Source: an uncultured Alphaproteobacteria bacterium (GTDB taxonomy: Bacteria; Pseudomonadota; Alphaproteobacteria; Micavibrionales; Micavibrionaceae). From it: 64,000 bases of DNA. The position numbers and the translations under genes are program-made. Location: the NCBI GenBank assembly GCA_963799275.1, contig CAWCWJ010000001.1, positions 197,071 to 261,070 of the forward strand, written 5' to 3'. The first letter of the stretch is position 1, and each line of letters opens with the position of its first letter. The notes beneath the pieces are model-generated. The model saw nothing but the letters and a program-made list of their open reading frames with translations. It was not told where the DNA came from and ran no database searches. This document shows positions 5,125 to 21,362 of this stretch, one piece after another.

Positions 5125-5370
5125 ATTTATAATTTTCTTATTAAATTAAAAGCTTTTTCCTTAAAAACCCCTGTGATAGAATAATAAACAGCTTTATTCA
5201 CAGCTTTACCCCCACATAAAGTTTTGATTGGCGTTTGTATTCTTTGTTATTTTAACAATAATTTCACTTTGCAATGCGCCAATTCTGGCGACATATCAGC
5301 ATAACTCATTATTAACCTTTCACATGTTATTATGTGGGAGGGATATTACGTTTATAAAAGGGGTACGTTC

Positions 5371-8300
5371 ATGACGCACTGGACACAAAACGTTTTCAGC
5401 ATCTTAAACGCTAGAAAAAAACATCACCATTATCAGCCCCTTGTTAAGGAATCGGGGAATGTTTTCTTGATGCTTTTTGGCGCGGTTGCCATGGTGGGTG
5501 TCTTAGGCGCGTCGACCATGACCGTCCTTCGTGGCCCCGTCAAAACCATGTCCGAAGTCACAAAACGCACCTTGGCCGAAAATAATATGATGTCATCGGC
5601 ACGGATTGCTGTGGTTACAGCATCACAAGATGCAACAACATATGATTGTGATACAGATGGTGTTGTTGAACCTGATGCATTTGGTACGGCTATTACTGGT
5701 TTTACAGGGGGGGGAACAATACCCGCCACTATTGGTGTCAGCCGCCAAGACCCATGGGGAAACGAGTATGGATATTGCGTATGGGATCATGGTCCATCAA
5801 TAGATGCGGGGGGTTGTACAGGGGATAATCGCCTTGCAGGAGATAATAGCACAACATCAACTTCATATTCTGTTGCCTTGATATCTGCAGGACCCAATGG
5901 TCAATATGAAGCTGGGTGTTTACCATATGCAGGTAGTCCAGCCAGCCAAATTTCTAGGGGTGGCGATGATATTGTTCATACTTTATCCTATGATGATGCC
6001 GCCAATATCGCAGGTGGATTATGGAGCGAGGAAGGGTCAACGGCAGCTCGAATTTCACGCGATTTAATTGTCGATGATGGTGCATCCACCCCCATTGAAA
6101 CTTTAAATTTTACAGCATCTTCGGGTGATTTTAGCGTTTCTGGCTCTGGTCAATTTCCAGTAATTAATACGGATAATATTCAACCAATTTCCGCGGCAAG
6201 CTTACTTATTAGCGCCCCAACAATTATATCTGGCGATTTAACTGCATCTGGCAATATCTCAGGCGTAAATTTATTGGCGACAGGAACGCTTGATGTTACA
6301 GGCGCTTCATCCCTTGGTATATTAGGCGCAGGCGCGACAACAGTAACAACTTTGAACAGTTCAGGGTTGGCACAGTTAGATTCTTTAAACGTGTTTAATA
6401 ATGCTGATATAGATGGCAATTTGAATGTGGATGGCACACTCACCCTTGCCGATTTAGATGTACCAGGCAACACATCATTAGGGACAACGACTGCACAAGA
6501 AATTGCCCTAAATGGAACAATAACCACCGATATTTTAATAAGTGCAGGTAACTTAACCCTTACATCAGGCAATGCAACAATTGGTGGAACATTGGGTGCA
6601 GGGGCGACAATATTAGATTCCTTAACCGTAACAAATAATTTAACCGTAAATGGAAGTTTAGGCGCTGCATTAAACGCAGGTGGTTTTGGTATTACAAACT
6701 TACTTGACCCTTCCGCCCTTCAAGATGCCGCAACAAAAAGTTATGTTGATACTGAAATTTCTAGTGTCATGTCTGGCGGTGTAACGGAAGATGACCCATT
6801 TGTTGAAGATGTTCTGAACACAGGTGAATTATGTATCGGAAAGACAGGTAACATCGTTGGCTGTGATGTTAGTGCAGTCACTGCCTTTGAAACCGATCCC
6901 ACAATATCAACTTTGGCAAATGATGGAGATGTATGTGTTGTTAGTGGTACACAAATTATTTGTAATGTACCACAAGGAACAATTAGCGCTGGCGCAACTG
7001 GCCTTTGGTCGGATAACACGAATAGTATAAATTATCTAAGCCAATATATTATAAAATCTGGCCAAAACTCAACCACTGCTGGCCTTGATGGTGATGGCAC
7101 ACGCATGTTTTACGACACTAACGAAGGCGCACTTCGTGGTGGTCGTATTTTTGGTGGAAACACTGCTTGGCAGAACACAAATATTGGTAGATATTCATTA
7201 GCATGGGGTTACAATCCTTTAGCCAGCGGTGATAGTGCTACAGCATTAGGGAACAATACGACAGCTAGTGGTAATAATTCTACAGCTATGGGGTCAAATA
7301 CAACAGCTAGTGGTATTAGTTCTACAGCTTTGGGAGGTTTTGCAACTGCAAGTGGCAATAATTCCGTAGCTTTGGGACGAGCTACAAATGCTAGTGGAAC
7401 TGATTCTATCGCTATGGGTGGTGGTACATTTGCTAGTGGTAATAATTCTACAGCTATAGGAAGTCAATCAACTGCAAGTGGCACTCATTCTGTAGTTATA
7501 GGTCATCAATCAACTGCAAGTGGGTTCAGCTCAACTAGTTTTGGATATAGAGTAATAGCAGGATCAGGAGTACCACAACCTTTTGGTGGTAATTCGGGCG
7601 TTGGTAATTATTCTGTCGCTTTTGGATTAGGTAACTCTTCATTTACATTACCTCCTCGTGTTTCTGGTAATGAAAGTTTTGGAATTTTCTTTGGTGACCA
7701 ATCAGGGGAAGACATCACCGCAACGAATGTTCTGGCGTTAGAAGGAGGCTCACTCCTCCTCTCTAACGATTCAGGAACCGCGTGTGCGGCGGATAAACAA
7801 GGAGCCTTACGCCTTAACGCAACCGCAGACGGCCTTGAAATGTGCGATGGTGCAGGAACATGGACATCCACCTTCACAGGTGGCGGGGCCAGCGGTGGTG
7901 TGATTGCATTAAACGACCTAACAGATGTTTTATTTGACACAACAACTGATTATGATGGGGACACGTTGGATGATGATGATAATTTGTTTATTGGAATTAC
8001 CGCCGCCGCGTTAACAACAGGTAATCAAAATATAGTTATTGGCGCAACATCTGGTAATAATATTACAGAAGCCAATGGCGGTGTTATTATTGGTGCAGAT
8101 GCGGGTCGCTTACTTACTACGGGTAATGATAATACATTTATAGGGCAAGAAGCAGGTGAATTAACCACAACAGGGGAATTTAATACTTTTATTGGAAATG
8201 ACGCAGGTAAAAATAACAGTACAGGTTCATACAATGATTTTTTTGGTAAAAGCTCAGGTAGAGATAATACAACAGGAATACAAAACACCTTTTTAGGTAT

Positions 8301-9609
8301 CAGTAGTGGTACAAGTAATACGACAGGTAATCGTAATGTTTATATAGGTAATAGAGCAGGCCGAAATCTAACAGCGGGAGTTGATAATGTTATTGTTGGT
8401 CAATCTGCTGGGGAACAAACAACCAATGCTAGTCAATCTGTTTTTATCGGTCACCGATCAGGGATTAGTGCGGGTTCAAGAAACGCATTTGTTGGTTGGT
8501 ATTCAGGTAGAAATATAAGCGGCACGGGAAATATTGCAATGGGTGAAAATTCCGCAGGCAATGTTTCTAACGGGTCTGATAATGTTTTTCTTGGGTCTAA
8601 TGTTGCAGCATCATTATCATCTGGTGATAAAAATATTTACATTGGTAGTGATGTTGATTCATCTGCTGCAACGGTATCCGAAGAATTAAATATTGGGGAT
8701 CTAATTAAGGGTGATATCGGTACAACATCAACCGACCCCCGCATCGGCGCGCCAAAATATTGCGATGAAAATCTAGCCAATTGCTTTATCGCTACGGATG
8801 TTTCTAGCAATAATGCTGGCGGCGCAGACACGCAAATTCAATTTAACAATATTGGCGTATTGGATGGCGATGCGGCCTTCATATGGGATTCAACCAATGA
8901 TATTTTGGATGTGAATGGATCAATCAATGCACAAACACGCATAACCTTGGGCCAAACCACGGGCGCCGCCGCACCAACATACCCTAGCCCCGCAGATTTA
9001 TGGAGTAACGGTACTGGCGATGATATTTATTATAACACTGGCACCACACCACAAGTTGGTATCGGGACAACAACACCTGCTGAAGCCCTTGACGTTGTTG
9101 GGAACATTCAATATTCAGGAATTTTGGTTGATGCGTCCGACCGCCGATTGAAAGAGAATATCACCCCCCTTGATAACAAGACAATTTTATCGCGGATTGA
9201 ACAAATCGATACCTATTCATTCACCATGATTGGGGATGACAAAAAACAGATGGAGTTTGGTGTTATTGCCCAAGAATTGGAAAAAATATTCCCCGAATTG
9301 GTAACCGTTGCGAATGACGTAATGAAAACCCGACATGTTAATTATGTTGGCTTTATCGCGCCCTTAATTGAATCAACCAAGCAATTAAAAATAGAAAATG
9401 ATACTTTAAAGAACGAACTTTCCACCCTAAAAAACAATCAAGAACAAATCTTACAAGATATGGCAAAAATAAAATCTATAATGGGTATAAATTCAGCAAA
9501 GGGCGCAAAATTTAATTCTTATTTATTATTACTCTCATTAATAATTGGTGGTGGGATAATGGTTGCCTTTTCACGTCAACAAAAAGTTATTAGCGGTAAG
9601 GAAGTTTAA
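5371..9609 (+). CDS. giant surface fibre protein: pseudopilin-like N-terminus, YadA-like head repeats, tail-fibre-type G-x-x-N-x-F-I-G repeats, C-terminal peptidase S74 intramolecular chaperone domain
   Basis: Start chosen at the ATG at 5371, preceded by AAGGGG; the tracked ORF begins at 5332. N-terminal hydrophobic helix NVFLMLFGAVAMVGVLGAS. GspG-like motifs DPWGNEYGY, SAGPNG and GGDDI. Hep_Hag-like NSTAMGSNTTASG repeats. A phage-fibre motif ITNLLDPSALQDAATKSYVD. An S74 motif SDRRLKENITPL ... EFGVIAQELEKIFPELV. A coiled coil and a C-terminal TM helix. Confidence 0.75.
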   Translation: MTHWTQNVFSILNARKKHHHYQPLVKESGNVFLMLFGAVAMVGVLGASTMTVLRGPVKTMSEVTKRTLAENNMMSSARIAVVTASQDATTYDCDTDGVVEPDAFGTAITGFTGGGTIPATIGVSRQDPWGNEYGYCVWDHGPSIDAGGCTGDNRLAGDNSTTSTSYSVALISAGPNGQYEAGCLPYAGSPASQISRGGDDIVHTLSYDDAANIAGGLWSEEGSTAARISRDLIVDDGASTPIETLNFTASSGDFSVSGSGQFPVINTDNIQPISAASLLISAPTIISGDLTASGNISGVNLLATGTLDVTGASSLGILGAGATTVTTLNSSGLAQLDSLNVFNNADIDGNLNVDGTLTLADLDVPGNTSLGTTTAQEIALNGTITTDILISAGNLTLTSGNATIGGTLGAGATILDSLTVTNNLTVNGSLGAALNAGGFGITNLLDPSALQDAATKSYVDTEISSVMSGGVTEDDPFVEDVLNTGELCIGKTGNIVGCDVSAVTAFETDPTISTLANDGDVCVVSGTQIICNVPQGTISAGATGLWSDNTNSINYLSQYIIKSGQNSTTAGLDGDGTRMFYDTNEGALRGGRIFGGNTAWQNTNIGRYSLAWGYNPLASGDSATALGNNTTASGNNSTAMGSNTTASGISSTALGGFATASGNNSVALGRATNASGTDSIAMGGGTFASGNNSTAIGSQSTASGTHSVVIGHQSTASGFSSTSFGYRVIAGSGVPQPFGGNSGVGNYSVAFGLGNSSFTLPPRVSGNESFGIFFGDQSGEDITATNVLALEGGSLLLSNDSGTACAADKQGALRLNATADGLEMCDGAGTWTSTFTGGGASGGVIALNDLTDVLFDTTTDYDGDTLDDDDNLFIGITAAALTTGNQNIVIGATSGNNITEANGGVIIGADAGRLLTTGNDNTFIGQEAGELTTTGEFNTFIGNDAGKNNSTGSYNDFFGKSSGRDNTTGIQNTFLGISSGTSNTTGNRNVYIGNRAGRNLTAGVDNVIVGQSAGEQTTNASQSVFIGHRSGISAGSRNAFVGWYSGRNISGTGNIAMGENSAGNVSNGSDNVFLGSNVAASLSSGDKNIYIGSDVDSSAATVSEELNIGDLIKGDIGTTSTDPRIGAPKYCDENLANCFIATDVSSNNAGGADTQIQFNNIGVLDGDAAFIWDSTNDILDVNGSINAQTRITLGQTTGAAAPTYPSPADLWSNGTGDDIYYNTGTTPQVGIGTTTPAEALDVVGNIQYSGILVDASDRRLKENITPLDNKTILSRIEQIDTYSFTMIGDDKKQMEFGVIAQELEKIFPELVTVANDVMKTRHVNYVGFIAPLIESTKQLKIENDTLKNELSTLKNNQEQILQDMAKIKSIMGINSAKGAKFNSYLLLLSLIIGGGIMVAFSRQQKVISGKEV

Positions 9610-9614
9610 TTTAA

Positions 9615-11273
9615 ATGAGATACCGCCTTATCCTTTATTTTTTAACGATTTCTTTTGTGATGATAATATCATCTAACGCGCATGCCTGCATCAACCCTGC
9701 GGGATCAGCGGGTGAGTCAATTTACAATAAAGATTACAGCGTAATGCAATATTGCGACGGCACCAATTGGGTCGGGATGAGCGATGTTGAAACAGGGCTA
9801 GTCGGTCATTGGCGACTAGATGAAACCAGCGGCACAACTGTAGTTGACAGTTCAAAAAATTCTTATACAGGTACAATGATAAATGGTTTAGATGCCGCCA
9901 ACAGCAATATAACTGGCCCTATTAATACAGCCCTTAGTTTTGATGGAATAGATGATCAAATTTCTGTATTTGATGGATGGTTACATTTTGAAAAAAATTT
10001 TACTGTTAGTTTTTGGATTTACATTAAAGATCCAGGAGCCAGAACAATGGATATATTGGGCACCTATACGGGATCAGGCGGAAATAATTTACATTTTGGT
10101 GTAAATGGGCACTTCGAAAGAATTTATTTAAGTATGCATGGTGGTTTTGGGATACAACATCAAGATACAAACGAGCTTTATAATCAATGGCATCATTTTG
10201 TATTTACCCGAAATGTAAATGGAAATTTAGAAATTTTTAAAAATGGTGTGTCTGTATCAAATAATAGTGCGGGCCCTATCGGTTCATTCATATTAAGCAA
10301 CAATGATAACTTAAATTTCGGGAAGGGCGGCACAGGCAATGTAATATTTAATGGTGGTTTAGATGAAATTCGTATCTATGATCGTATCCTCTCCCCCGCT
10401 GAAATTTCCGCCTTGTATGAATCAGGCCGCGACCGTGGATTGGTTGGCCATTATAAAATGGATGAAACCTCAGGATTGACAGTATTTGACAGTACGGTTT
10501 ATGGTAATAATGGAACAATATTAGGCGGTTCAACAGGTATTTCTTATAGCAATCCATCCCCTACTGGAACAGCAATTGATTTTCCTAATACACCTTCTGA
10601 TAATAGTGGTCGTCGTGTAGAGATACCAAATATTTTCCCTACTGGTCCTTCCTCTCCCTTTACAATTTCAAGTTGGATTAAAAGAGAAGGTTCCTCGCAA
10701 AGCCTTTTTACTAATGGAACTCAATCTACAAAACAATTTTTGATTTTCAGAAATATTAGAATTAGAGATCTTTCTGGTTGGTATGATAGATCCTCAAGTG
10801 CAACTAAAATAAATGATCAGTGGGATCATATTTCTATTGTTTATGATGGGGCTAATATTAAAATTTATAATAGTGGTTTGTTATCTGATAGTCGTTCTCG
10901 AACATTAAATTTAACTGAAACAACATTTCTATTTGGTAGTACAGGCGGTGCATTTGGAGAAGGTGGTGCTGATTTTGATGATGTACGACTATATAATCGT
11001 GCACTTTCTGATGATGAAATCCAATCAATTTATCAACAACGTTTCAAAAGCTGTACTTCCCCCGATGGGCACGAAGGGGACACAATTTATAATAATACCA
11101 ATAATGTAATGCAGTATTGTAATGGAACATTTTGGGCGGCCATGGGCGCAGCGGGCGATGGCGGTGCAGGGTGCACTGGCCCCATCGGCGCAGCAGGCGA
11201 CCTAATTTATAATGACAGCTTTAATGTAATGCAATATTGCGAAGGCGACACATGGATGGCAATTGGAAAGTAA
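9615..11273 (+). CDS. secreted protein with two LamG/concanavalin-A-like lectin domains flanked by Cys-bracketed modules
   Basis: Signal peptide ending in NAHA. Two Laminin_G_3-type domains (GLVGHWRLDETSG ... LDEIRIYDRILSPAEISALY and GLVGHYKMDETSG ... FDDVRLYNRALSDDEIQSIY). Three copies of C-x2-P-x-G-x2-G-x2-IYN-x4-VMQYC-x-G-T-x-W. Confidence 0.8.
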   Translation: MRYRLILYFLTISFVMIISSNAHACINPAGSAGESIYNKDYSVMQYCDGTNWVGMSDVETGLVGHWRLDETSGTTVVDSSKNSYTGTMINGLDAANSNITGPINTALSFDGIDDQISVFDGWLHFEKNFTVSFWIYIKDPGARTMDILGTYTGSGGNNLHFGVNGHFERIYLSMHGGFGIQHQDTNELYNQWHHFVFTRNVNGNLEIFKNGVSVSNNSAGPIGSFILSNNDNLNFGKGGTGNVIFNGGLDEIRIYDRILSPAEISALYESGRDRGLVGHYKMDETSGLTVFDSTVYGNNGTILGGSTGISYSNPSPTGTAIDFPNTPSDNSGRRVEIPNIFPTGPSSPFTISSWIKREGSSQSLFTNGTQSTKQFLIFRNIRIRDLSGWYDRSSSATKINDQWDHISIVYDGANIKIYNSGLLSDSRSRTLNLTETTFLFGSTGGAFGEGGADFDDVRLYNRALSDDEIQSIYQQRFKSCTSPDGHEGDTIYNNTNNVMQYCNGTFWAAMGAAGDGGAGCTGPIGAAGDLIYNDSFNVMQYCEGDTWMAIGK

Positions 11274-11279
11274 TAAAAT

Positions 11280-13763
11280 ATGTTAAAAAACAAAAATAAC
11301 TTTAAAAGGTCTTTTACGATGTCAAAAAAAATTCAAATATTTTTATTTGCTTTCACTCTCATGTTTGGTGCGCAAAACGCACACGCCCAATGTACCAGCC
11401 CCGCATCAAATGAAGGTGGCATTGATTACAGCACAACCATCAATGACCTAATCGTTTGCGACGGCACAAATTGGCAAACCGCAGGGTACACTGGCGGTGG
11501 AAGTGGACTATTCACCGACAACACAACCCACATTACTCGCTCAGACTTTCATATCATAAATAGTGGCCAAACATCAACCACTGCTGCCCTTGATGGTGAT
11601 GGCACACGCATGTTTTATGATCCCAATAAAGGCGCATTGAGAGGGGGGTCTATAACTAGTGGTAATGATAGATGGCAAAATTCTAATATTGGTTCAGAGT
11701 CGTTCGCTTGGGGTTGGAATGTAGAGGCTAGTGGTAATAGTTCTACAGCTATAGGTCGTTCTGTGATTGCAACCGGCTTTAACTCGATGGCTTTTGGCAA
11801 CGATATACAAGTTGGAACTGGTACGGCACAAACGGTAGATACAAATGCTGGCGAGGGAAATTATTCTATTGCCTATGGTTTGGGTGATGCGTCAACATCT
11901 ACTAAACCCCGAGTAACTGGTAATGAAACAGCTGCGTTTTTCTTTGGTGATCAACAAGGTGAAAATATCACTGCAACAAATGTTCTGGCGTTAGAAGGTG
12001 GCTCACTCCTTCTCTCCAACGATTCAGGAACCGCCTGTGCAGCGAATAAACAAGGAGCCTTACGCCTTAACACAACCGCAGACGGCCTTGAAATGTGTGA
12101 TGGCGCAGGAACTTGGACATCCACCTTCACAGGTGGCGGTGCTGGCGGTGGTGCAATCGCCATTAATGATTTAACGGATGCCTATACCGATTACACCACA
12201 GATTTTAACCTGTTTATGGGTCAAAATGCTGGTAGTTCAATTGCAGCAGGCGCGGCAAATAACATTGCTATTGGTATAAATTCTGCTTCTAATCTTACTA
12301 CAGGAGGTGATAATATTGCCATAGGTAATAATGCAATGGCATCTACCACAACAGGTGGTGGTAATACAATTATTGGTCATGATTCCATGACAACTGGAAA
12401 TGGTTTTGCAAATACTGCACTCGGGGTGCGTACATTAAAATTATCAACAGGGGCTTTAAACACTGCTATTGGTGATTCAGCGTTGGAATCTTCTACAACT
12501 GCAAGTGGAAATACCGCTCTGGGCTTTCACGCAGCAAGATTAATAGATAGTGGCGCAAATGTGTCGATTGGTGTGCGAACTATGTATAAAATGACCACGG
12601 GATCAGATAATGTAGCGATTGGTGCTTATAATTTTTCAAATGCCATAACAGGTTCCGATAATACTATACTGGGAAGTCGATCTGGAAACAATCTTACATC
12701 TGGGGATGGAAATATCCTCATTGGCAAAGAAGTTCAAACGTCTACAGCTACATCTAATGAAGAATTAAATATCGGTGATTTAATCAAAGGGGATATCGGT
12801 ACAACATCAACCGACCCCCGCATCGGCGCGCCAAAATATTGTGATGAAAATCTTGCCAATTGCTTTATCGCTACGGATGTTTCGGGTGGTATCGGCAGCC
12901 GTATCCAAGATGCGGATAATGATACATATATTGATGTTGATGGTACAGGCGATGGATCAGAAAATACCATTAGAATGGGTTTTGGTGGAACAGATAGACT
13001 TGTATTAAATGGCCCTAATGCAACTTTAAGTGCACGATTATTTTTGCAAACAACAAATGGTTTTAGTGCTGTTTTTAAAGCAACATCACCAGGTTCAGGA
13101 CCATTTTTGTTATTTCAACATAGTGGAATAGATGTAGAATCAGGCATACTTGGTTTCCCGCGGGAGGCAGGTGCAGGCGATAGTGCATTTGCAGTATCAA
13201 CTGGTAATAATGGTGTTCTGGCTGAACATTTACGCGTTACATCCGATGGAGACGTTGGCATTGGGACACTAACCCCAACAGAAAGTCTGCATGTTAATGG
13301 CAATGTACTTGCTGATGCTTATTTTCATACCTCTGATAAAAATTTGAAGAATGATATAGAGCTTGTAAAAGGTCTTGATCTTATTAATAAATTGCGCGGT
13401 GTTACCTTTACTTTTAAAGAGGATAATCGTGAAAGTGCAGGAATTATCGCGCAAGATGTTCAAAAAGTACTTCCCCGCGCGGTCAAGGAAAATACAGGCG
13501 GGTTCCTAACCGTTGATTATAACCAGCTTTTTGCACCGATTATTGAAGCGATTAAAGATCTTCATAAAATGGTGATGGATTTAACAAAAAATATACAATC
13601 AATCTTTGATAAGGTAAGCGCATTAGAAAGTGAAAATGCTAATTTGAAAAATGAAGTTCATATATTAAAAAAACAAAATCAGGATATTATGAAACGTCTT
13701 GATGCGCTCGAAACATTACCGCAAACTTCATCTTCTGACATCACCGCGCAAGGCGCTACATAA
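11280..13763 (+). CDS. surface fibre protein 2 with C-terminal peptidase S74 intramolecular chaperone domain
   Basis: Sec signal (FAFTLMFGAQNAHA), a Cys module, head-type repeats and an S74 domain (SDKNLKNDIELV ... AGIIAQDVQKVLPRAV ... VDYNQLFAPIIEAIKDL), followed by a coiled coil. Several blocks are near-identical to 5371-9609. The alternative start is the ATG at 11319. Confidence 0.75.
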   Translation: MLKNKNNFKRSFTMSKKIQIFLFAFTLMFGAQNAHAQCTSPASNEGGIDYSTTINDLIVCDGTNWQTAGYTGGGSGLFTDNTTHITRSDFHIINSGQTSTTAALDGDGTRMFYDPNKGALRGGSITSGNDRWQNSNIGSESFAWGWNVEASGNSSTAIGRSVIATGFNSMAFGNDIQVGTGTAQTVDTNAGEGNYSIAYGLGDASTSTKPRVTGNETAAFFFGDQQGENITATNVLALEGGSLLLSNDSGTACAANKQGALRLNTTADGLEMCDGAGTWTSTFTGGGAGGGAIAINDLTDAYTDYTTDFNLFMGQNAGSSIAAGAANNIAIGINSASNLTTGGDNIAIGNNAMASTTTGGGNTIIGHDSMTTGNGFANTALGVRTLKLSTGALNTAIGDSALESSTTASGNTALGFHAARLIDSGANVSIGVRTMYKMTTGSDNVAIGAYNFSNAITGSDNTILGSRSGNNLTSGDGNILIGKEVQTSTATSNEELNIGDLIKGDIGTTSTDPRIGAPKYCDENLANCFIATDVSGGIGSRIQDADNDTYIDVDGTGDGSENTIRMGFGGTDRLVLNGPNATLSARLFLQTTNGFSAVFKATSPGSGPFLLFQHSGIDVESGILGFPREAGAGDSAFAVSTGNNGVLAEHLRVTSDGDVGIGTLTPTESLHVNGNVLADAYFHTSDKNLKNDIELVKGLDLINKLRGVTFTFKEDNRESAGIIAQDVQKVLPRAVKENTGGFLTVDYNQLFAPIIEAIKDLHKMVMDLTKNIQSIFDKVSALESENANLKNEVHILKKQNQDIMKRLDALETLPQTSSSDITAQGAT

Positions 13764-13782: not shown

Positions 13783-15942
13783 ATGAAATATTTTCTTCCT
13801 ATTTTATTAGTGGCGATTGTAAGCGGATCTTCTATTGCTTTGACAGCGGATAGTTATCGCGTGCCATCCAAAGGCGGACAAGTTTATATTGAGGAGCATT
13901 CGGTTTGTAAACAAGTCACCAACAATTCGCCCGATAATGATCTCTTCGTCCCCACTCGTACCCCCGCCGAATGGCATACAGGCGGCGAGTCTTTCGTCGA
14001 AAACACGCCCTCTATTGCAAATATAATAGATAATTGTAATTCTGGGACATTAAATCTAGAGGGGGTGACGAGAAATTATCTTGATGGGGCAAGCTCTGTC
14101 ACGGTGTCGGGTAATTTTGCCTATGTCGCAAGCCTTGGTACCGATAGCTTGACCATCATCGATATCTCTAACCCCGCCGCCCCCACACAAACAGGCACCA
14201 TCTCTAATGCCAATCTTGATGGTGCTTTCTCTGTCACGGTGTCGGGTAATTATGCCTATGTCGCAAGCCTTAATGCCAATAGCTTGACCATCATCAATAT
14301 CTCTAACCCCGCCGCCCCCACACAAACAGGCACCATCTCTAATGCCAATCTTGATGGGGCAAGATCTGTCACGGTGTCGGGTAATTATGCCTATGTCGCG
14401 AGCAATATTGCCGATAGCTTGACCATCATCGATATTTCTAACCCCGCCGCCCCCACACAAACAGGCACCATCTCTAATGCCAATCTTGATGGGGCAAGCT
14501 CTGTCATGGTGTCGGGTAATTTTGCCTATGTTGCAAGCTCTACTGCCGATAGCTTGACCATCATCGATATCTCTAACCCCGCCACCCCCATACAAACAGG
14601 CACCATCTCTAATGCCAATCTTGATGCGGCTTACTCTGTCACGGTGTCAGGTAATTATGCCTATGTCACAAGCTTTAATGCCGATAGCTTGACTATCATC
14701 GATATCTCTAACCCCGCCGCCCCCACACAAACAGGCACCATCTCTAATGCCAATCTTGATGGTGCTTTCTCTGTCACGGTGTCGGGTAATTATGCCTATG
14801 TCGCAAGCCTTGGTGCCGATAGCTTGACCATCATCGACATATTTAACCCCGCCGCCCCCACACAAACAGGCACCATTTCTAATGCCAATCTTAATGCGCC
14901 TTACTCTGTCACGGTGTCGGGTAATTATGCCTATGTCGCAAGCTCTACTGCCGATAGCTTGACCATCATCGATATCTCTAACCCCGCCGCCCCCACACAA
15001 ACAGGCACCATCTCTAATGTCAATCTTGATGGGGCTTACTCTGTCACGGTGTCGGGTAATTATGCCTATGTCGCAAGCCTTGTTGCCGATAGCTTGACCA
15101 TCATCGATATCTCAAACCCCGCCGCCCCCACACAAACAGGCACCATCTCTAATACCAATCTTAATGGGGCAAGATCTGTCACGGTGTCGGGTAATTTTGC
15201 CTATGTCGCAAGCGTTTATGCCGATAGCTTGACCATCATCGATATCTCTAACCCCTCCGCCCCCACACAAACAGGCACCATTTCTAATGCCAATCTTAAT
15301 GGGGCAAGCTCTGTCACGGTGTCGGGTAATTTTGCCTATGTTGCAAGCTCTACTGCCGATAGCTTGACCATCATCGATATCTCTAACCCTGCCGCCCCCA
15401 CACAAACAGGCACCATCTCTAATGCCAATTTTGATGGGGCAAGCTCTGTCACGGTGTCGGGTAATTATGCCTATGTCGCAAGCTTTAATGCCAATAGCTT
15501 GACCATCATCGATATCTCTAACCCCGCCGCCCCCACACAAACAGGCACCATCTCTAATGCCAATCTTAATGGGGCAAGATCTGTCACGGTGTCGGGTAAT
15601 TTTGCCTATGTCGCAAGCGTTAATGCCGATAGCTTGACCATCATCGATATCTCTAACCCCGCCGCCCCCATACAAACAGGCACCATCTCTAATGCCAATC
15701 TTAATGGGGCTTTCTCTGTCACGGTGTCGGGTAATTATGCCTATGTCGCAAGCTTTCTTGCCAATAGCTTGACCATCATCGATATCTCTAACCCCGCCGC
15801 CCCCACACAAACAGGCACCATCTCTAATGCCAATCTTAGTAATGCGCGCTCTGTCACGGTGTCGGGTAATTTTGCCTATGTCGCGAGCTCTACTGCCGAT
15901 AGCTTGACCATAATTAATCTCTCCTGCACGTTCGGTTGCTAA
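13783..15942 (+). CDS. secreted LVIVD-repeat beta-propeller protein (14 repeats)
   Basis: Signal peptide, then 14 copies of a 45-aa unit (SVTVSGNYAYVAS..ADSLTIIDISNPAAPTQTGTISNANLDGA) that matches the LVIVD repeat pattern. Confidence 0.85.
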   Translation: MKYFLPILLVAIVSGSSIALTADSYRVPSKGGQVYIEEHSVCKQVTNNSPDNDLFVPTRTPAEWHTGGESFVENTPSIANIIDNCNSGTLNLEGVTRNYLDGASSVTVSGNFAYVASLGTDSLTIIDISNPAAPTQTGTISNANLDGAFSVTVSGNYAYVASLNANSLTIINISNPAAPTQTGTISNANLDGARSVTVSGNYAYVASNIADSLTIIDISNPAAPTQTGTISNANLDGASSVMVSGNFAYVASSTADSLTIIDISNPATPIQTGTISNANLDAAYSVTVSGNYAYVTSFNADSLTIIDISNPAAPTQTGTISNANLDGAFSVTVSGNYAYVASLGADSLTIIDIFNPAAPTQTGTISNANLNAPYSVTVSGNYAYVASSTADSLTIIDISNPAAPTQTGTISNVNLDGAYSVTVSGNYAYVASLVADSLTIIDISNPAAPTQTGTISNTNLNGARSVTVSGNFAYVASVYADSLTIIDISNPSAPTQTGTISNANLNGASSVTVSGNFAYVASSTADSLTIIDISNPAAPTQTGTISNANFDGASSVTVSGNYAYVASFNANSLTIIDISNPAAPTQTGTISNANLNGARSVTVSGNFAYVASVNADSLTIIDISNPAAPIQTGTISNANLNGAFSVTVSGNYAYVASFLANSLTIIDISNPAAPTQTGTISNANLSNARSVTVSGNFAYVASSTADSLTIINLSCTFGC
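14080..15929 (+). repeat. tandem array, about 13.7 x 135 bp, in-frame coding repeats
   Basis: The string acggtgtcgggtaat recurs with an exact 135-nt period (14101, 14236, ...). Units are near-identical at the DNA level. Confidence 0.95.
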
Positions 15943-16640
15943 ATACCACTCTTCCATAATGCTGCATCACCTAACGCTCCAACCATTTTTTCATGGGCCT
16001 GCGCTTCATCATTGCTCACCTTAAAATTTCGTGGTTCGCGATAGGGTCTGTCCGATGGGATAATATCCAAACTAATCCTCGATGATTGACTGCCGCTTCC
16101 CTCTCCCATTGCCAAACCGCGTTGCCGACCACCCAATAACTCAAGATATACTTCGGCCAATAATTCAGAATCGAGCAACGCGCCATGTAAAGTCCGTGAT
16201 GTATTATCAATCCCAAAACGGCGGCAGAGCGCATCCAGATTGGCAGGGCTACCCGGAAATTTCTTCCGCGCCATGGGCAGGGTATCAATCACCCGCCTTG
16301 GGTCTATAGAAGGAAAGCCAAACATTTTTAATTCCGCATTTATAAATTTCATATCAAATTCGGCATTATGTGCGATTAACTTCGCCTCTGTACCGATAAA
16401 ATCAACAAAATCGCCAACCACTTCACCAAAGGTAGGCTCGTTTTTTAAGCGTTCATTATCAAGGCCATGCACCGCGACCACTTCGGCGGGGACATCGCGT
16501 TCAGGATTTATATATTGGTGATAGGTACGCCCCGTTGGCATATGATTTTCAAGCTCGATACAGCCCATTTCAACAAGGCGATGGCCTTCGAAAGGATCAA
16601 TCCCTGTTGTTTCAGTATCAAAAACAATTTCACGACCCAT
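15939..16640 (-). CDS. dnaQ: DNA polymerase III epsilon subunit (3'-5' exonuclease)
   Basis: Exo motifs VFDTETTG and HNAEFD, plus HGALLDSELLAEVY. Confidence 0.92.
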   Translation of the reverse strand: MGREIVFDTETTGIDPFEGHRLVEMGCIELENHMPTGRTYHQYINPERDVPAEVVAVHGLDNERLKNEPTFGEVVGDFVDFIGTEAKLIAHNAEFDMKFINAELKMFGFPSIDPRRVIDTLPMARKKFPGSPANLDALCRRFGIDNTSRTLHGALLDSELLAEVYLELLGGRQRGLAMGEGSGSQSSRISLDIIPSDRPYREPRNFKVSNDEAQAHEKMVGALGDAALWKSGI

Positions 16641-17929: not shown

Positions 17930-18735
17930 GCCAAAACCTCTTTTATTAATTGATCATCTATGACTGGTATTGATCCTGACCATATTTCAAATGATTTTTG
18001 CGCCTGATAAAGCAACATGCCAATACCCGTCACTGTTTCAAATCCTTTTTCTTTTGCTTGCGCCAAAAGCGGAGTTATTAAAGGCGAATAAACAATATCA
18101 GTAACAATCGAATGTTTTTGTAAAGATGATAAATTAATTTCTAGAGAGGGGTATCCATCCATACCCAAAGATGTTGTATTAATTAAAATATTGGTATGGG
18201 GTAAGTAATTTTGATATTTATCCCACTTTAAAACTTCAATATATTGTTCATCAAATTTTTTTAAGATTTGCGCTTTTTCAATCGTACGATTGGTGATATA
18301 AATTTTACCGATTTGCTTATCCAGCAACCCTTGAATCACCGCCCTTGCCGCGCCTCCCGCCCCGATGATAAGGGCGGTTTTACCCTTAAAATCAAAATCT
18401 GAATTTTCAATAATATTTTGGGTAAAGCCAAAGGCATCAGTATTATATCCCGATAAAAAACCATTATTAATCACAATTGTATTCACTGCCCCAATATTTT
18501 TGGCGCCCTCATCAATCGCACTACAAAAATTCATAATATTTTGTTTGTGGGGGATTGTCACATTAAACCCATTATATCCTTCATTGATCAGACGTTGAAC
18601 CTCGTGTTCTAAATCATCGGCTTTAATATCAATGGCGGTATAATCACCATCAATTTGTGCATCTTCCAACCAACGATTGTGAATAATCGGGCTTTTGCTT
18701 TGTGTGATGGGATGACCAATAACGCCTAACTTCAT
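17926..18735 (-). CDS. aroE: shikimate dehydrogenase
   Basis: GVIGHPITQSKSP, NVTIPHK, GAGGAARA. Confidence 0.9.
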   Translation of the reverse strand: MKLGVIGHPITQSKSPIIHNRWLEDAQIDGDYTAIDIKADDLEHEVQRLINEGYNGFNVTIPHKQNIMNFCSAIDEGAKNIGAVNTIVINNGFLSGYNTDAFGFTQNIIENSDFDFKGKTALIIGAGGAARAVIQGLLDKQIGKIYITNRTIEKAQILKKFDEQYIEVLKWDKYQNYLPHTNILINTTSLGMDGYPSLEINLSSLQKHSIVTDIVYSPLITPLLAQAKEKGFETVTGIGMLLYQAQKSFEIWSGSIPVIDDQLIKEVLA

Positions 18736-19325
18736 AGGGTATTTTCCTTATCTAAAAAAGCGATCAATTTAAGCAATGGTATCCCCATAATTGTAAAAAA
18801 ATCGCCATTAATTTCTTTAAATAATCGCGCACCCCTAAATTCAATGGCATACCCACCAACGCAATGTAGCGCATCATCCGCACATAGAGAAAGATACTTT
18901 TTAATATCATTGTGCGTTAGTTTTTTCATGGTCATGTTTGCAATATCAAAATCTGACCATAAAATTTTTCCGTTTTTAATAACACTCACCCCTGAAATAA
19001 GCGCATGGGTTTGATTTTGCATTGCGGATAGTTTATCAAAGGCTTGTTCCAGATTTTCTGATTTTGAAAAAATTTTATTTTCGAAAATTAAAATTTGGTC
19101 TGAACCAATAATATAGCTATTCTTCTTATCTTGCACTGCCAATGCTTTTTCTTGGCTTAACCGCATCGCAATTTCTTCATAAGAAATATTATCCATTTGC
19201 AATTTTTTAATAATGAATTGTTCATCAATATTGGTTGGATGAACGTCAAAATCATATCCAACATTTTTTAACAATTTTTGTCGTGCCTTTGATGCCGATG
19301 CTAAAATGATTTTATGTTTAAACAT
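18732..19325 (-). CDS. maf: Maf-like nucleoside triphosphate pyrophosphatase
   Basis: ILASASKARQKLL at the N-terminus and GGYAIE near the C-terminus. Start set at MFKHK (19325), just after the stop of the upstream gene. Confidence 0.85.
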   Translation of the reverse strand: MFKHKIILASASKARQKLLKNVGYDFDVHPTNIDEQFIIKKLQMDNISYEEIAMRLSQEKALAVQDKKNSYIIGSDQILIFENKIFSKSENLEQAFDKLSAMQNQTHALISGVSVIKNGKILWSDFDIANMTMKKLTHNDIKKYLSLCADDALHCVGGYAIEFRGARLFKEINGDFFTIMGIPLLKLIAFLDKENTL

Positions 19326-20211
19326 CGTTTCCATCCTTGATAATTTTGGCAGTATCATTACGTTTATTGCCCATATTCATTTTTCCGCGATGGCGTTGCA
19401 AAAGGGCGTAAATCTCTGCTGTTGTTTCCTCCACTGATTTTCGGGTGACATCAATCACGGGCCATTTTCCTTTTGCAAAAATACGTCGGGCAGATTTTAT
19501 TTCATCTTCAATCTTTTCCAAATCAAGGTAATCGTTATCATCATAATGCTTGTTATGATCTTCGGCATGAAGCCGACTGCGCCTTAAATTTTCAAGTCGT
19601 TTTGCACTTTCGGTTAATCCGATAATTAGCGGCTCTTTCAATCCAAAAATCTTTTCGGGGAATGGAACATGAGGCACCAATGGTATATTTGCAGCCTTGA
19701 TTCCACGCCTTGCCAAAAAAATACAGGTGGGGGTTTTTGATGTGCGCGATACCCCAACCAAAATCACATCTGCATCTTCAATCCCTTGTGTGGTTTGTCC
19801 ATCATCATAATGTAAGGCAAAATCCACGGCATCAATACGCTTAAAATATGCCTCATCAAGGGAATGCTGAAGGCCGGGAATCCCCTTTGCTTCAATCCCT
19901 AAATAAGAGGACATTGTACGTAAAATCGGATCCAGCACGGGCATACATGGAACATCCAGTATCTGGCATGTCTTTTGTAATTTGCGCCGTAGCTTTTTAT
20001 CAACAAAGGTAAATAAAACTGGGCCTGGTGCTTTTTCAATATCGGCAATGGCGCGATCCAATTGCATTTCTGATCGTATCATCGGCCAAAATCTTTCCGA
20101 TGCATCAATACCATCAAATTGGGATAAGGCCGCCCGTGCCAACCCTTGTAAGGTGGTTCCCGTGGCATCCGATACCAAGTAAAGCCGAAATTCTTTTACG
20201 CCCGTGTTCAT
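19318..20211 (-). CDS. pyruvate,phosphate dikinase / PEP synthase regulatory protein (DUF299 kinase-pyrophosphorylase)
   Basis: LVSDATGTT and P-loop-like VGVSRTSKTPT. This is the RP001-type gene that flanks the origin in Rickettsia and Caulobacter. Confidence 0.85.
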   Translation of the reverse strand: MNTGVKEFRLYLVSDATGTTLQGLARAALSQFDGIDASERFWPMIRSEMQLDRAIADIEKAPGPVLFTFVDKKLRRKLQKTCQILDVPCMPVLDPILRTMSSYLGIEAKGIPGLQHSLDEAYFKRIDAVDFALHYDDGQTTQGIEDADVILVGVSRTSKTPTCIFLARRGIKAANIPLVPHVPFPEKIFGLKEPLIIGLTESAKRLENLRRSRLHAEDHNKHYDDNDYLDLEKIEDEIKSARRIFAKGKWPVIDVTRKSVEETTAEIYALLQRHRGKMNMGNKRNDTAKIIKDGNDV

Positions 20212-20306
20212 AACATCATTCTATCAAGGGTGGCGCATAAGAAAAGAAGCGATTATCGCCCGCTTATTTTTATTCAAAATGTTTATTCAAACCTATTTCG
20301 TATCAA

Positions 20307-21362
20307 TTAAGCATCCAAGAATTTTTGTGCCAAAATTCTATCGCGAAACGGAATATCTTTTACAAAGGTCACTTTATTGTCATACATAATTTGAAATAAA
20401 TGTGCTTGGTTAATAGGATCGTTCATCCCGCTGAAAAAAGAGTCTTTGGCTACAGTTTGTGCCAATTCATCTAAATAAATTGTTCCATTAGGTAATTTTG
20501 ATAATTTTAGAATATCTTTCTCATGCAATGGTGATGTGCCAACCAACCCCAGTTTTTGATGCAAAATATGGTCAAGCCGCTCCAGCGTTTCATGATCTAC
20601 CGCATCAATACGGTTAATATCTGCATACCATTGGCGGAAAATATGGGCAATCGCCATACCGTTATACAAAGCCGTAGGATAACGTTCAAGAATATTGACC
20701 ATGATTTGAGCCATATCACCATCATCAGATGATAGGATATGACGCCACACATCGTCAAAACCTGCGCCCCGCAATTCCCACCCAATAAAGATAGAGATGG
20801 CATCGCTATCGGCTGCGCGCATACGTTCGAGTTGTAAGGTTGCATTAATGGTGTACGTGTCTTCGAATGCGCCAAAATTTTCTTCATGATCAATATCCCG
20901 TAATGCCTTGGAAATAATCGGGATTAAAGATAATCGATAATGACTGGAACGACCAATGGCGGCGGCATCAAAACCAAAATGATCAATGAAAATTATTTTT
21001 GTATCAATTTCAAGATGAAAACCCCCCGTCCCCAAATCAGACAAAGCGATTTTCCACCCTGCGGATTGCGCTTTATTTAACAAGGCCAGCCCCATTGGAC
21101 TTTCACTAATTATTGCAGTAGCCCAGCATAAAACATCGTAATCAGTTTCAAACACGTACGGATATGCATCCAAATTTTGAAACTTCTTTATGGCTAGGGG
21201 ATTGAGCTTTTCAATCGTAAAGCTTTCCTCATCCAACTCACAATTTATTGTTTGTATCGGGGCATCAAGCAAGGAATCATCCATCGCATTTTCAGTAACG
21301 CAATCATACCATCTTGTAATGGCACGTGGTTTTGATATGGGAAAATGTCGATTTGACTTCAT
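20307..21362 (-). CDS. hypothetical protein, paralogue A of tandem pair
   Basis: Long ORF. Start set at MKSNRHF (21362) to avoid a 143-nt overlap with the upstream gene; the tracked ORF extends to 21536. It aligns by eye with 21394-22761 (WELRGAGFDDVW vs WELRLAGEFDLW; LSKLPNGTIYLDE vs LGELPMGKNYLSS). Confidence 0.6.
   Translation of the reverse strand: MKSNRHFPISKPRAITRWYDCVTENAMDDSLLDAPIQTINCELDEESFTIEKLNPLAIKKFQNLDAYPYVFETDYDVLCWATAIISESPMGLALLNKAQSAGWKIALSDLGTGGFHLEIDTKIIFIDHFGFDAAAIGRSSHYRLSLIPIISKALRDIDHEENFGAFEDTYTINATLQLERMRAADSDAISIFIGWELRGAGFDDVWRHILSSDDGDMAQIMVNILERYPTALYNGMAIAHIFRQWYADINRIDAVDHETLERLDHILHQKLGLVGTSPLHEKDILKLSKLPNGTIYLDELAQTVAKDSFFSGMNDPINQAHLFQIMYDNKVTFVKDIPFRDRILAQKFLDA

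Follow-up and report, generated by a model that had tools for sequence, protein, structure and literature searches.

How does a protein built like a phage tail fibre come to begin like a type II secretion pseudopilin? This question is raised by a gene encoding a giant fibre protein of 1412 amino acids in an uncultured alphaproteobacterium of the family Micavibrionaceae (contig CAWCWJ010000001.1; the whole 64-kb stretch of DNA analysed is referred to below as the window, and residues 1-222 of the protein as the head). Our analysis favours, with a probability of roughly 55%, the reading that the head is a divergent GspG-like type 4 pilin module fused to the fibre shaft, forming a cap that lacks Glu5 and displays a trimeric, self-cleaving fibre adhesin. 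Within this reading, and with the same slight preference, the N-terminal signal would be of a non-canonical class III type, composed of a basic leader, Gly at -1, Asn at +1 and a 20-residue hydrophobic helix with Gly14 and without Glu5. Judged from its sequence and predicted fold, the head probably works like a GspG-type pseudopilin and is distantly related to it.

Layout of the head

Residues are numbered from the Met encoded by the ATG at position 5371. The open reading frame (ORF) of the giant gene spans 5332-9609 on the forward strand, being open from 5332. Its true start is almost certainly the ATG at 5371, because a Shine-Dalgarno sequence (aaagggg) lies 8-10 nt upstream and an identical database protein of 1412 amino acids (P0016) begins there; the gene is accordingly placed at 5371-9609 (+), the strand that carries all features of the protein described below.

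The protein starts with a basic leader (residues 1-29; 5371-5457) ending in KESG, whose limits are supported by conservation among 235 homologues and by alignment of ESG with QRG of GspG. A putative cleavage site of the prepilin peptidase type follows Gly29 (5455-5457). The next segment is a long helix (residues 30-86; 5458-5628), recognised from an AlphaFold2 (AF2) model, from conservation and from its register with helix alpha1 of GspG. Its hydrophobic half, NVFLMLFGAVAMVGVLGAS (residues 30-48; 5458-5514), is a putative membrane anchor or filament core, and its second half is amphipathic. The globular part of the head (residues 87-222; 5629-6036), delimited using alignments A2 and A3, the AF2 model and Foldseek, contains an EF-hand-like loop DCDTDGVVEP (5644-5673), the motifs TGGGTIP and GGLW, and four conserved Cys residues. 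Three further motifs occur in the same order as in GspG: (i) DPWGNEYGY (residues 127-135; 5749-5775), the beginning of the strand 1 segment DPWGNEYGYCVWDHG (5749-5793), (ii) ISAGPNG (residues 171-177; 5881-5901), located after strand 2, and (iii) GGDDI (residues 197-201; 5959-5973), located before strand 3.

The first-pass annotation of the window had described precisely this pseudopilin-like layout of basic leader, hydrophobic helix, long helix and three motifs, and every one of these elements was found in its place. Its observation that Glu is absent from position +5 also held, the residue being Met34 in the window protein, and the motif equivalents it had quoted for PulG are correct (the PulG sequence reads DPWGSDY, SLGPDG and DDI).

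Sequence similarity to GspG

The first 240 residues retrieved homologues of 37-62% identity, in which no Pfam domain is present. In alignments of 47-93 homologues, the DPWG, SAGPNG and DDI motifs are invariant or nearly so, which removes the concern that they are chance matches in a single sequence. The N-terminus is conserved as well. In a set of 235 N-termini, Gly occupies position -1 without exception (100%), following [EQ][SRA] and an Arg- and Lys-rich leader; Asn is found at +1 (91%), Phe at +3, Leu-Phe at +6/+7 (Phe7, 97%), Gly at +14 (96%) and Gly-Pro at 26-27 (99%). Glu never occurs at position +5, where Ala (38%), Thr (25%) and Met (21%) are found instead. The hydrophobic stretch within this region is the best-conserved part of the whole protein. 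For comparison, GspG of Escherichia coli reads QRG/FTLLE...G14...G26...DPWGNDY...SAGPDG...DDI (the slash marks the end of the leader), and the leader ends in [EQ][SRA]-G in the head family versus Q-[KR]-G in GspG and PilA.

When the alignment of the family was compared with that of GspG using hhalign, a score of 34.9 was obtained (P = 5.4e-5, probability 66%). The controls gave lower values: at most 20.7 for 32 unrelated families, 16.0 for the reversed GspG alignment and at most 14.6 for eleven other Gsp proteins. With the hydrophobic segment included, Gly-1 was placed on Gly-1, Gly14 on Gly14 and ESG/N on QRG/F. At a relaxed posterior threshold, the path ran collinearly through DPWG, SAGPDG and DDI, spanning residues 1-142 of GspG. 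The match to a single GspG sequence covered 13-15 columns with a probability of 22-27%. In addition, the Pfam model T2SSG (PF08334) produced matches in 2 of 93 family members (best E = 0.0073), which is far above chance for a family named in advance; both lie below the gathering score, and the window protein itself gave no match. In 12 of the 93 members, EF-hand models matched the DCDxDGxxEP loop.

Predicted structure of the head

In the AF2 model of the 240-residue N-terminus, residues 29-86 form one continuous helix of 58 residues, behind which comes a small sheet. A second model, for which the hydrophobic half was omitted and 47 homologues served as input, reached a predicted local distance difference test score (pLDDT) of 86.9 and a predicted template modelling score (pTM) of 0.82, and consists of a helix and three main strands. 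As in GspG, one strand directly follows DPWG, one comes just ahead of SAGPNG and one closely follows DDI.

In a Foldseek search of 350,542 PDB chains with this model, PulG (5o2y) ranked first, GspG of enterohaemorrhagic E. coli (3g20) second and PilA1 of Clostridium difficile third. Since the PDB holds only about eight distinct GspG sequences, it is very unlikely that such a ranking arose at random. It should be noted that Foldseek also weighs residue identity, so the fold and motif matches are not independent of each other. With the long helix included, the model of the full-length head gave noise only, and a Foldseek search of the viral structure library BFVD likewise returned noise and no fold match.

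Fibre shaft, S74 domain and C-terminal tail

The head is followed by the fibre shaft (residues 223-1255; 6037-9135), made of beta-helix-like and Gly/Asn-rich repeats, with cassettes common to a second fibre gene located downstream (ORF 11280-13763). The shaft includes the tail-fibre motif DAATKSYVD (6724-6750) and, at about 7222-7713, YadA-head-like repeats (Pfam YadA_head, E = 3.9e-23; partial matches to NCBIfam YadA/BimA models). A Peptidase S74 intramolecular chaperone domain comes next (residues 1256-1312; 9136-9306; PF13884, E = 3.6e-16), its 59.6 bits being well above the gathering cut-off of 22. The YadA-like repeats and the S74 domain that had been noted behind the head are thereby confirmed. 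The catalytic dyad of the S74 domain, Ser1256 and Lys1261 (SDRRLK), is intact, and the pattern S-D-x-x-L-K is kept in seven family members. Self-cleavage at Ser1256 would be expected by analogy, because endosialidase-type chaperones behave in this way.

The C-terminal tail (9307-9609) comprises a heptad-rich, coiled-coil-like stretch, a hydrophobic helix FNSYLLLLSLIIGGGIMVAF (9511-9570) and the basic end SRQQKVISGKEV. Both extreme ends of the protein are therefore basic, each lying beside a hydrophobic helix. In the window protein, only the YadA_head repeats were matched among the YadA models of Pfam and NCBIfam, the beta-barrel anchor being absent and the NCBIfam YadA score reaching 24.5 bits against a cut-off of 750. 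The lack of this anchor rules out a trimeric autotransporter.

Comparison of the giant gene with that of ORF 11280 revealed two common cassettes, one of 125 nt (8680-8804/12759-12883, 93.6% identity) and one of 86 nt (7046-7131/11551-11636, 84.9% identity). Outside the common cassettes the two proteins are about 37% identical (blastp/blastn). The presence of near-identical DNA cassettes in otherwise so divergent proteins suggests that shaft segments are exchanged by recombination between paralogous fibre genes.

Distribution and architecture of the head family

A profile of the head was used to search 1.84 billion representative sequences and recovered 1074 clusters at E <= 1e-3, 716 of them at E <= 1e-30; the family thus numbers at least 1074 clusters. 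In each of the proteins listed, the head match is located at the start or within about 80 residues of it, and the proteins are 217-6785 amino acids long. Nearly all of the 77 genome loci recovered are labelled alphaproteobacterial (a few bear other labels), and they include Micavibrio, Hyphomicrobium, Stappia, Nitratireductor, Mesorhizobium, Brucella gallinifaecis, Falsochrobactrum ovis and many metagenome-assembled genomes. Tandem paralogues of head genes are common. An S74 domain forms the end of at least 52 of 161 representatives; in 27 of these 52, as in the window protein, it is followed by a transmembrane helix at a distance of about 100 residues.

In the source databases the members are called 'tail fiber domain-containing protein', 'endosialidase-like protein' or 'hypothetical protein', with 'pilus tip adhesin PilV' as a UniRef name, and none of these names refers to the head. 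The window protein is a typical member of this large unnamed and mainly alphaproteobacterial family, to which the predator Micavibrio also belongs. In the first-pass annotation, its architecture was one not seen described before. The novelty implied goes too far, as the joining of the head to a giant fibre is the rule in at least 1074 clusters, and a modular architecture of pilin plus S74 has been listed before (PMC8179133). The family is a non-canonical and formerly unannotated branch of the known 'modular pilin' theme. At one locus (L002), three short head-only paralogues are followed by a separate Sec-dependent S74 fibre; the head and the fibre can therefore be separated into different genes.

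Several loci share recurrent surroundings. Besides the site between secB and dnaQ used by the window gene, head-fibre genes recur at a second insertion site (L037:4796-5494 and 14 other loci; L026:4929-6311 and 16 others), immediately downstream of a gene for an ABC1/UbiB-type kinase; a DotI/IcmL-like gene is found 1-3 kb upstream. We considered the conserved neighbours at both sites (fxsA-secB...dnaQ and DotI-like...ubiB) as functional partners and judged them to represent conserved housekeeping synteny, not a functional link.

At Rhizobiales-type loci, the head-fibre gene has a divergently oriented gene for a serine recombinase of ~200-236 amino acids upstream of it, at a distance of 230-400 bp (up to 1.8 kb) (L072:9043-9753, L063:9079-9756, L015:8957-9538, L020:4935-5552, L011:7614-8249, L012:7575-8249 and L025:1-410). 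These recombinases have Resolvase and HTH_7 domains, like the Hin/Gin invertases. The surroundings of L072 resemble an integrative-conjugative element (TraG/VirD4 coupling protein, relaxase, ArdC, HipA and a restriction-modification methylase), and by a comparison of size and order alone, L063 contains ORFs of matching sizes in the same order. The position of the recombinase gene suggests possible phase or antigenic variation, or mobility, of the head-fibre genes.

A Rhodoferax operon and the small ESGN-leader proteins

A tblastn search of 72,556 plasmids with the head of the window protein gave no match. With a Brucella-type head as the query, one match was obtained, on a conjugative plasmid of Rhodoferax ferrireducens T118. 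This betaproteobacterial homologue is a 'hypothetical protein' of 1049 amino acids, scoring 80 bits with the head profile and containing the motifs DFDGDAAVEAP, FGYCSWDNG, LAIIAKGPNG and GDDIVVAY. It is encoded by the last gene of an operon that comprises genes for two secretin-domain proteins, a T2SSE ATPase, a T2SSF platform protein and a peptidyl-prolyl isomerase, as well as three small pilin-like genes. The leaders of the small proteins read KQAG/FMNALIMFGIAL, HQKG/FINALIMFGIAL and KQKG/FMLAYVMLMIAV, with Glu5 in none of them. A gene for a 'tail fiber assembly protein' follows that of the head homologue. The locus (L085; plasmid NC_007901.1, 154745-170635) is a divergent type 4 filament operon, and its composition resembles that of the T2SS-like loci (T2SS, type II secretion system) reported upstream of giant genes in Omnitrophota (bioRxiv 10.1101/2023.11.21.568195).

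Homologues of the small Rhodoferax proteins are also present in alphaproteobacterial loci. One of them (L039:19109-19828), 5.5 kb from a head gene, starts with RRSESG/NVLFLILIAVALFAAL and so has the same ESGN leader as the head. The family to which it belongs has 3537 members at E <= 1e-3, of about 240 amino acids, all unnamed and lacking a Pfam or NCBIfam model. Compared with the head family by hhalign, it matched in the leader, helix and first loop, with a probability of 92.5%. The gene adjoining the small ESGN gene gave weak N-terminal matches to GspK, GspI, XpsI and ComGE.

In the two genomes analysed for it, the small gene belongs to a similar cassette of four unnamed genes (~180, 240, 250 and 300 amino acids; L086:9426-12859 and L087:9431-12670), of which L039 contains the first genes before the locus ends (18537-20621). 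Two of the four have Glu5-less pilin-like leaders, ..E[SA]G/NVLFLILIAVAL and ..QRG/SALIYILVAVAL. The cassette lies between housekeeping genes (rpe...aconitase) and not beside an ATPase gene.

Alternative explanations

Several results weigh against the identification of the head as a pilin module. With regard to sequence, Glu5, Phe or Met at +1 and the N-methyl motif are missing throughout the 235 N-termini; the window protein matched no pilin model in Pfam or NCBIfam, the N_methyl models PF07963 and TIGR02532 remaining unmatched at E <= 1; no pilin was found when the PDB sequences were searched by phmmer and profile hmmsearch; and the confident core of the hhalign match is just 14 columns. The three top Foldseek matches are non-significant (E = 0.28, 1.1 and 4.1; target-normalised template modelling scores of 0.40, 0.43 and 0.22), and the small ESGN family has no profile similarity to GspG. 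With regard to gene content, no prepilin peptidase, ATPase, platform protein or secretin was found in the 64-kb window or within 10 kb of the head gene at the 77 loci. The queries were E. coli Gsp proteins and the Rhodoferax ATPase, platform protein and secretins, none of which gave a convincing match. Finally, the Rhodoferax homologue starts with a classical Sec signal peptide and has no hydrophobic pilin helix, so a globular head of this type can function without being a true pilin. Taken alone, none of the single tests is statistically decisive.

The proposal of a GspG-type pseudopilin made in the first-pass annotation is thus upheld in part. Profile, fold and motif register speak for it, if weakly, and Glu5, the N-methyl motif, a pilin match of the window protein and nearby assembly genes are all wanting. 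The structural and profile comparison with GspG and PulG that had been suggested as a check was similarly divided, yielding a confident model with PulG and GspG in the first two places, at E values short of significance. The suggested search for a prepilin peptidase and for T2SS or type 4 pilus genes found none in the window or beside the gene at the 77 loci.

The same results can be accommodated by assuming that the hydrophobic helix is an uncleaved signal anchor and that the head is a calcium-binding, membrane-proximal base merely resembling GspG, in which case the fibre would be anchored in the inner membrane or released and would reach the surface by a route unrelated to type 4 filaments. 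The missing assembly genes, the absence of Glu5 and of the N-methyl motif and the position of all pilin similarities below formal significance agree with this, as does the fact that the strongest Pfam signal in the head came from the EF-hand-like DxDxDG loop. We nevertheless consider it rather unlikely. The alignment with GspG stays collinear and keeps its register all the way from the leader Gly to DDI, and its controls are clean; the top fold matches in the PDB are PulG and GspG, and a homologue is tied to an operon encoding a secretin, an ATPase and a platform protein. Moreover, a diderm cell needs an outer-membrane conduit for fibres of up to 6785 amino acids, and a signal anchor offers none.

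Cleavage by signal peptidase I after Gly-Ala-Ser (residues 46-48) would turn the same stretch into a Sec signal peptide and the product into a soluble secreted fibre, the head of which might dock non-covalently on a pilus tip or another surface structure, as that of the Rhodoferax homologue may. The -3/-1 rule is satisfied by the family consensus G17-A18-[SAG]19, and Sec signals are used both by the Rhodoferax protein and by the fibre encoded downstream (ORF 11280). As a rule, signal peptides show little conservation. Being the most conserved part of the protein, and matching the pilin pattern at Gly-1, Gly14 and Gly26, the hydrophobic stretch is hardly a disposable one; it is also continuous with the amphipathic helix in the AF2 model, and the ESGN leader is common to thousands of small proteins. 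Secretion in soluble form is therefore improbable.

The weakest alternative, in which the locus is what remains of a prophage or tailocin and the protein a phage tail fibre attached to the virion by its N-terminus, could appeal to the S74, T7-tail-like, Gp34_trimer and Shufflon_N-like segments of family members, to the 'tail fiber' names of relatives and to the mobile-element contexts of some of them beside a serine recombinase, and is nonetheless ruled out for practical purposes by context (no phage structural genes in the window; a cluster between secB and dnaQ, at a site common to relatives) and by the near-absence of the head from viral contigs (1 of 2.9 million), the lack of a BFVD fold match and the N- and C-terminal membrane helices, which are not tail-fibre features, pointing the same way. 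The sole viral contig with a head (L083, IMGVR_UViG_3300037313_002204, 6578-7282) may be a miscalled cellular fragment.

Genomic setting of the window

The window is part of the chromosome of a diderm alphaproteobacterium with a guanine-plus-cytosine (GC) content of about 39%. It encodes a porin and LptE; an outer membrane is therefore present, which the fibre must cross. The giant gene is the first of a four-gene insert between secB and dnaQ, preceded by genes for MltA, a Tim44-like protein, FxsA and SecB and followed downstream by that for DnaQ. In a relative (L001), the orthologous secB-dnaQ interval contains just one gene, encoding a 391-amino-acid protein composed of the head and a short tail. 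The remainder of the window is occupied by housekeeping genes (rho, mnmE, mnmG, parAB, holA, lptE, leuS, the porin gene and hslUV). Leucyl-tRNA synthetase is encoded on the reverse strand by two overlapping ORFs, 43281-44624 and 44590-45861, the N-terminal half with the editing domain and the C-terminal half with the anticodon-binding domain; the split represents a frameshift, a sequencing error or a pseudogene.

The other genes of the insert, all on the forward strand, encode (i) a secreted protein with two Laminin_G_3 lectin-like domains, identified by Pfam, and three copies of a Cys module, seen in its translation (9615-11273), (ii) the second fibre, recognised by domain and sequence comparison, which has an S74 domain of its own in addition to a Sec signal peptide, a Cys module at the N-terminus and the shaft cassettes common to the giant gene (11280-13763), and (iii) a secreted beta-propeller of 14 LVIVD repeats (13783-15942; Pfam LVIVD, E = 7e-155). 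The repeats of the last protein are near-identical and follow its signal peptide, and its gene has a GC content of 49%, that of the surroundings being ~39%; on the opposite strand, the long ORFs 14056-14595 and 15112-15957 are probably repeat artefacts. The lectin-like protein is a probable accessory partner of the fibre.

The Cys module is a motif of 28 residues, C-x2-P-x-G-x2-G-x3-YN-x5-MQYC[DNE]G-x2-W, which follows the signal peptide of secreted proteins. Copies were found at 9687-9770, 11052-11135 and 11172-11255 in the lectin-like gene and at 11391-11474 in the second fibre gene. Elsewhere, the module occurs in L002:13311-16151, L005:16741-20708, L010:17297-, L017:13279-14415, L021:13178-14713 and L052:16748-18676. 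Only 9 of the 953 non-head ORFs of the fetched loci contain it, all nine downstream of a head-fibre gene and mostly adjacent to it, across seven loci. The module probably serves the docking of accessory fibre and lectin proteins.

Proposed assembly and significance

If the head is a divergent pilin module, the fibre protein may insert in the inner membrane through the N-terminal helix and the helix at 9511-9570, leaving its two ends cytoplasmic and its shaft periplasmic. By the known S74 mechanism, the membrane-tethered chaperone and the coiled coil would unite three chains in the periplasm; the triple fibre would then fold from its C-terminal end, and the S74 part would cut itself off at Ser1256. 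The three heads, possibly trimmed after Gly29, would constitute the Glu5-less cap for polymerisation by a type 4 filament or T2SS-like machine, with the small ESGN proteins as candidate subunits. Polymerisation would push the fibre through a secretin, so that it would be displayed as an adhesin, onto which the lectin-like protein and the second fibre encoded downstream would probably dock through their Cys modules.

A broader proposal, which we put forward only tentatively and regard as rather unlikely as a whole, is that an unrecognised alphaproteobacterial class of type 4 filaments has as its subunits the heads and the small ESGN-leader proteins, which number thousands. Its pilins would be without both Glu5 and the N-methyl motif. 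They would be assembled by a divergent T2SS-like machine, possibly the 'incomplete' T2SS of Micavibrio, and the giant self-cleaving fibres would attach the cell to prey or partner cells.

If the pilin interpretation of the head is right, more than 1000 giant surface proteins could be read as pilus-borne adhesins and ~3500 small proteins as filament subunits, the current annotation of both families being hypothetical, 'tail fiber domain' or 'endosialidase-like'. It would mean that type 4 filament subunits can do without Glu5 and the canonical methylation motif, and that whole clades are overlooked when pilins are surveyed by motif. It would also provide a candidate for the missing T2SS pseudopilins of Micavibrio and for the prey-attachment organelle of epibiotic predators, and an example of a phage S74 chaperone, tethered by its own transmembrane helix, reused to build cellular fibres. 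Should the pilin interpretation prove wrong, the head would still be a well-defined, widespread domain for which neither Pfam nor NCBIfam has a model.

Comparison with known systems

The best hhalign and Foldseek matches of the head are GspG and PulG (T2SSG, PF08334). In common with these, the head has a leader ending in [Q/E]-x-Gly, a hydrophobic helix of 20 residues, with Gly14 and Gly26, an extended alpha1 and three motifs, of which DPWG-x-x-Y precedes strand 1, S-x-G-P-[DN]-G follows strand 2 and DDI precedes strand 3. Unlike GspG, it has no Glu5, Asn instead of Phe at +1 and no match to the N-methyl motif. It also contains ~40-residue inserts, namely the DxDxDG loop and a second one rich in Cys, has two putative disulfides and carries a 1200-residue C-terminal fibre, its gene being located outside a gsp operon. 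In Micavibrio aeruginosavorus ARL-13, a T2SS has been annotated from which GspC, G, H and K are absent, together with pil genes and eight prepilin-like proteins (PMC3189940).

In type 4 filaments, assembly is started by a tip complex with a cap subunit without Glu5, and the filament grows from tip to base (PMC10191384). The head resembles the GspK-type cap pseudopilins in the absence of Glu5, and a gene in the ESGN cassette has a weak N-terminal match to GspK, whereas no similarity to the globular or alpha-domain of GspK was detected in the head (hhalign score 14.6).

Modular pilins, in which a pilin module is joined to a functional module, are widespread, and the combination of pilin and S74 (IPR012902-IPR030392) is among those listed (Raynaud et al. 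2021, PMC8179133). Like PilB and PilC of Streptococcus sanguinis and the pilin-S74 proteins, members of the head family couple a small N-terminal pilin module to a bulky functional module that is probably tip-exposed. Unlike them, they do not carry the canonical class III signal with Glu5 (IPR012902) and have therefore escaped the modular-pilin census; their shafts are far longer (up to 6785 amino acids), and about half of the S74 members end in a membrane helix.

CofB and TcpB, which are trimeric minor pilins at the tip of type IVb pili (PMC8179133), and PilV, the shufflon tip adhesin of IncI plasmid R64, likewise place an elongated beta-rich adhesin behind a pilin module, with CofB and TcpB being homotrimeric at the tip. 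Unlike the head family, all three keep Glu5 and are encoded inside pilus operons. The likeness to PilV extends to a UniRef name, to matches with the tail-fibre-like part of Shufflon_N (PF04917) and to the setting of some relatives beside a site-specific recombinase gene in conjugative-element contexts. The pilin part of the Shufflon_N model remained unmatched, the window protein giving no match and those of L015 and L072 matching only profile positions 202-305, in their fibre parts. The recombinase encoded beside the head-fibre genes is a serine recombinase, unlike Rci of R64, which is a tyrosine recombinase.

With phage endosialidases, phage tail fibres and YadA, the window protein shares the S74 domain with its Ser-Lys dyad and the YadA-head repeats. 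In place of the virion-attachment N-terminus of the former and the beta-barrel of the latter, it has a pilin-like N-terminal helix and a transmembrane helix behind the S74 domain.

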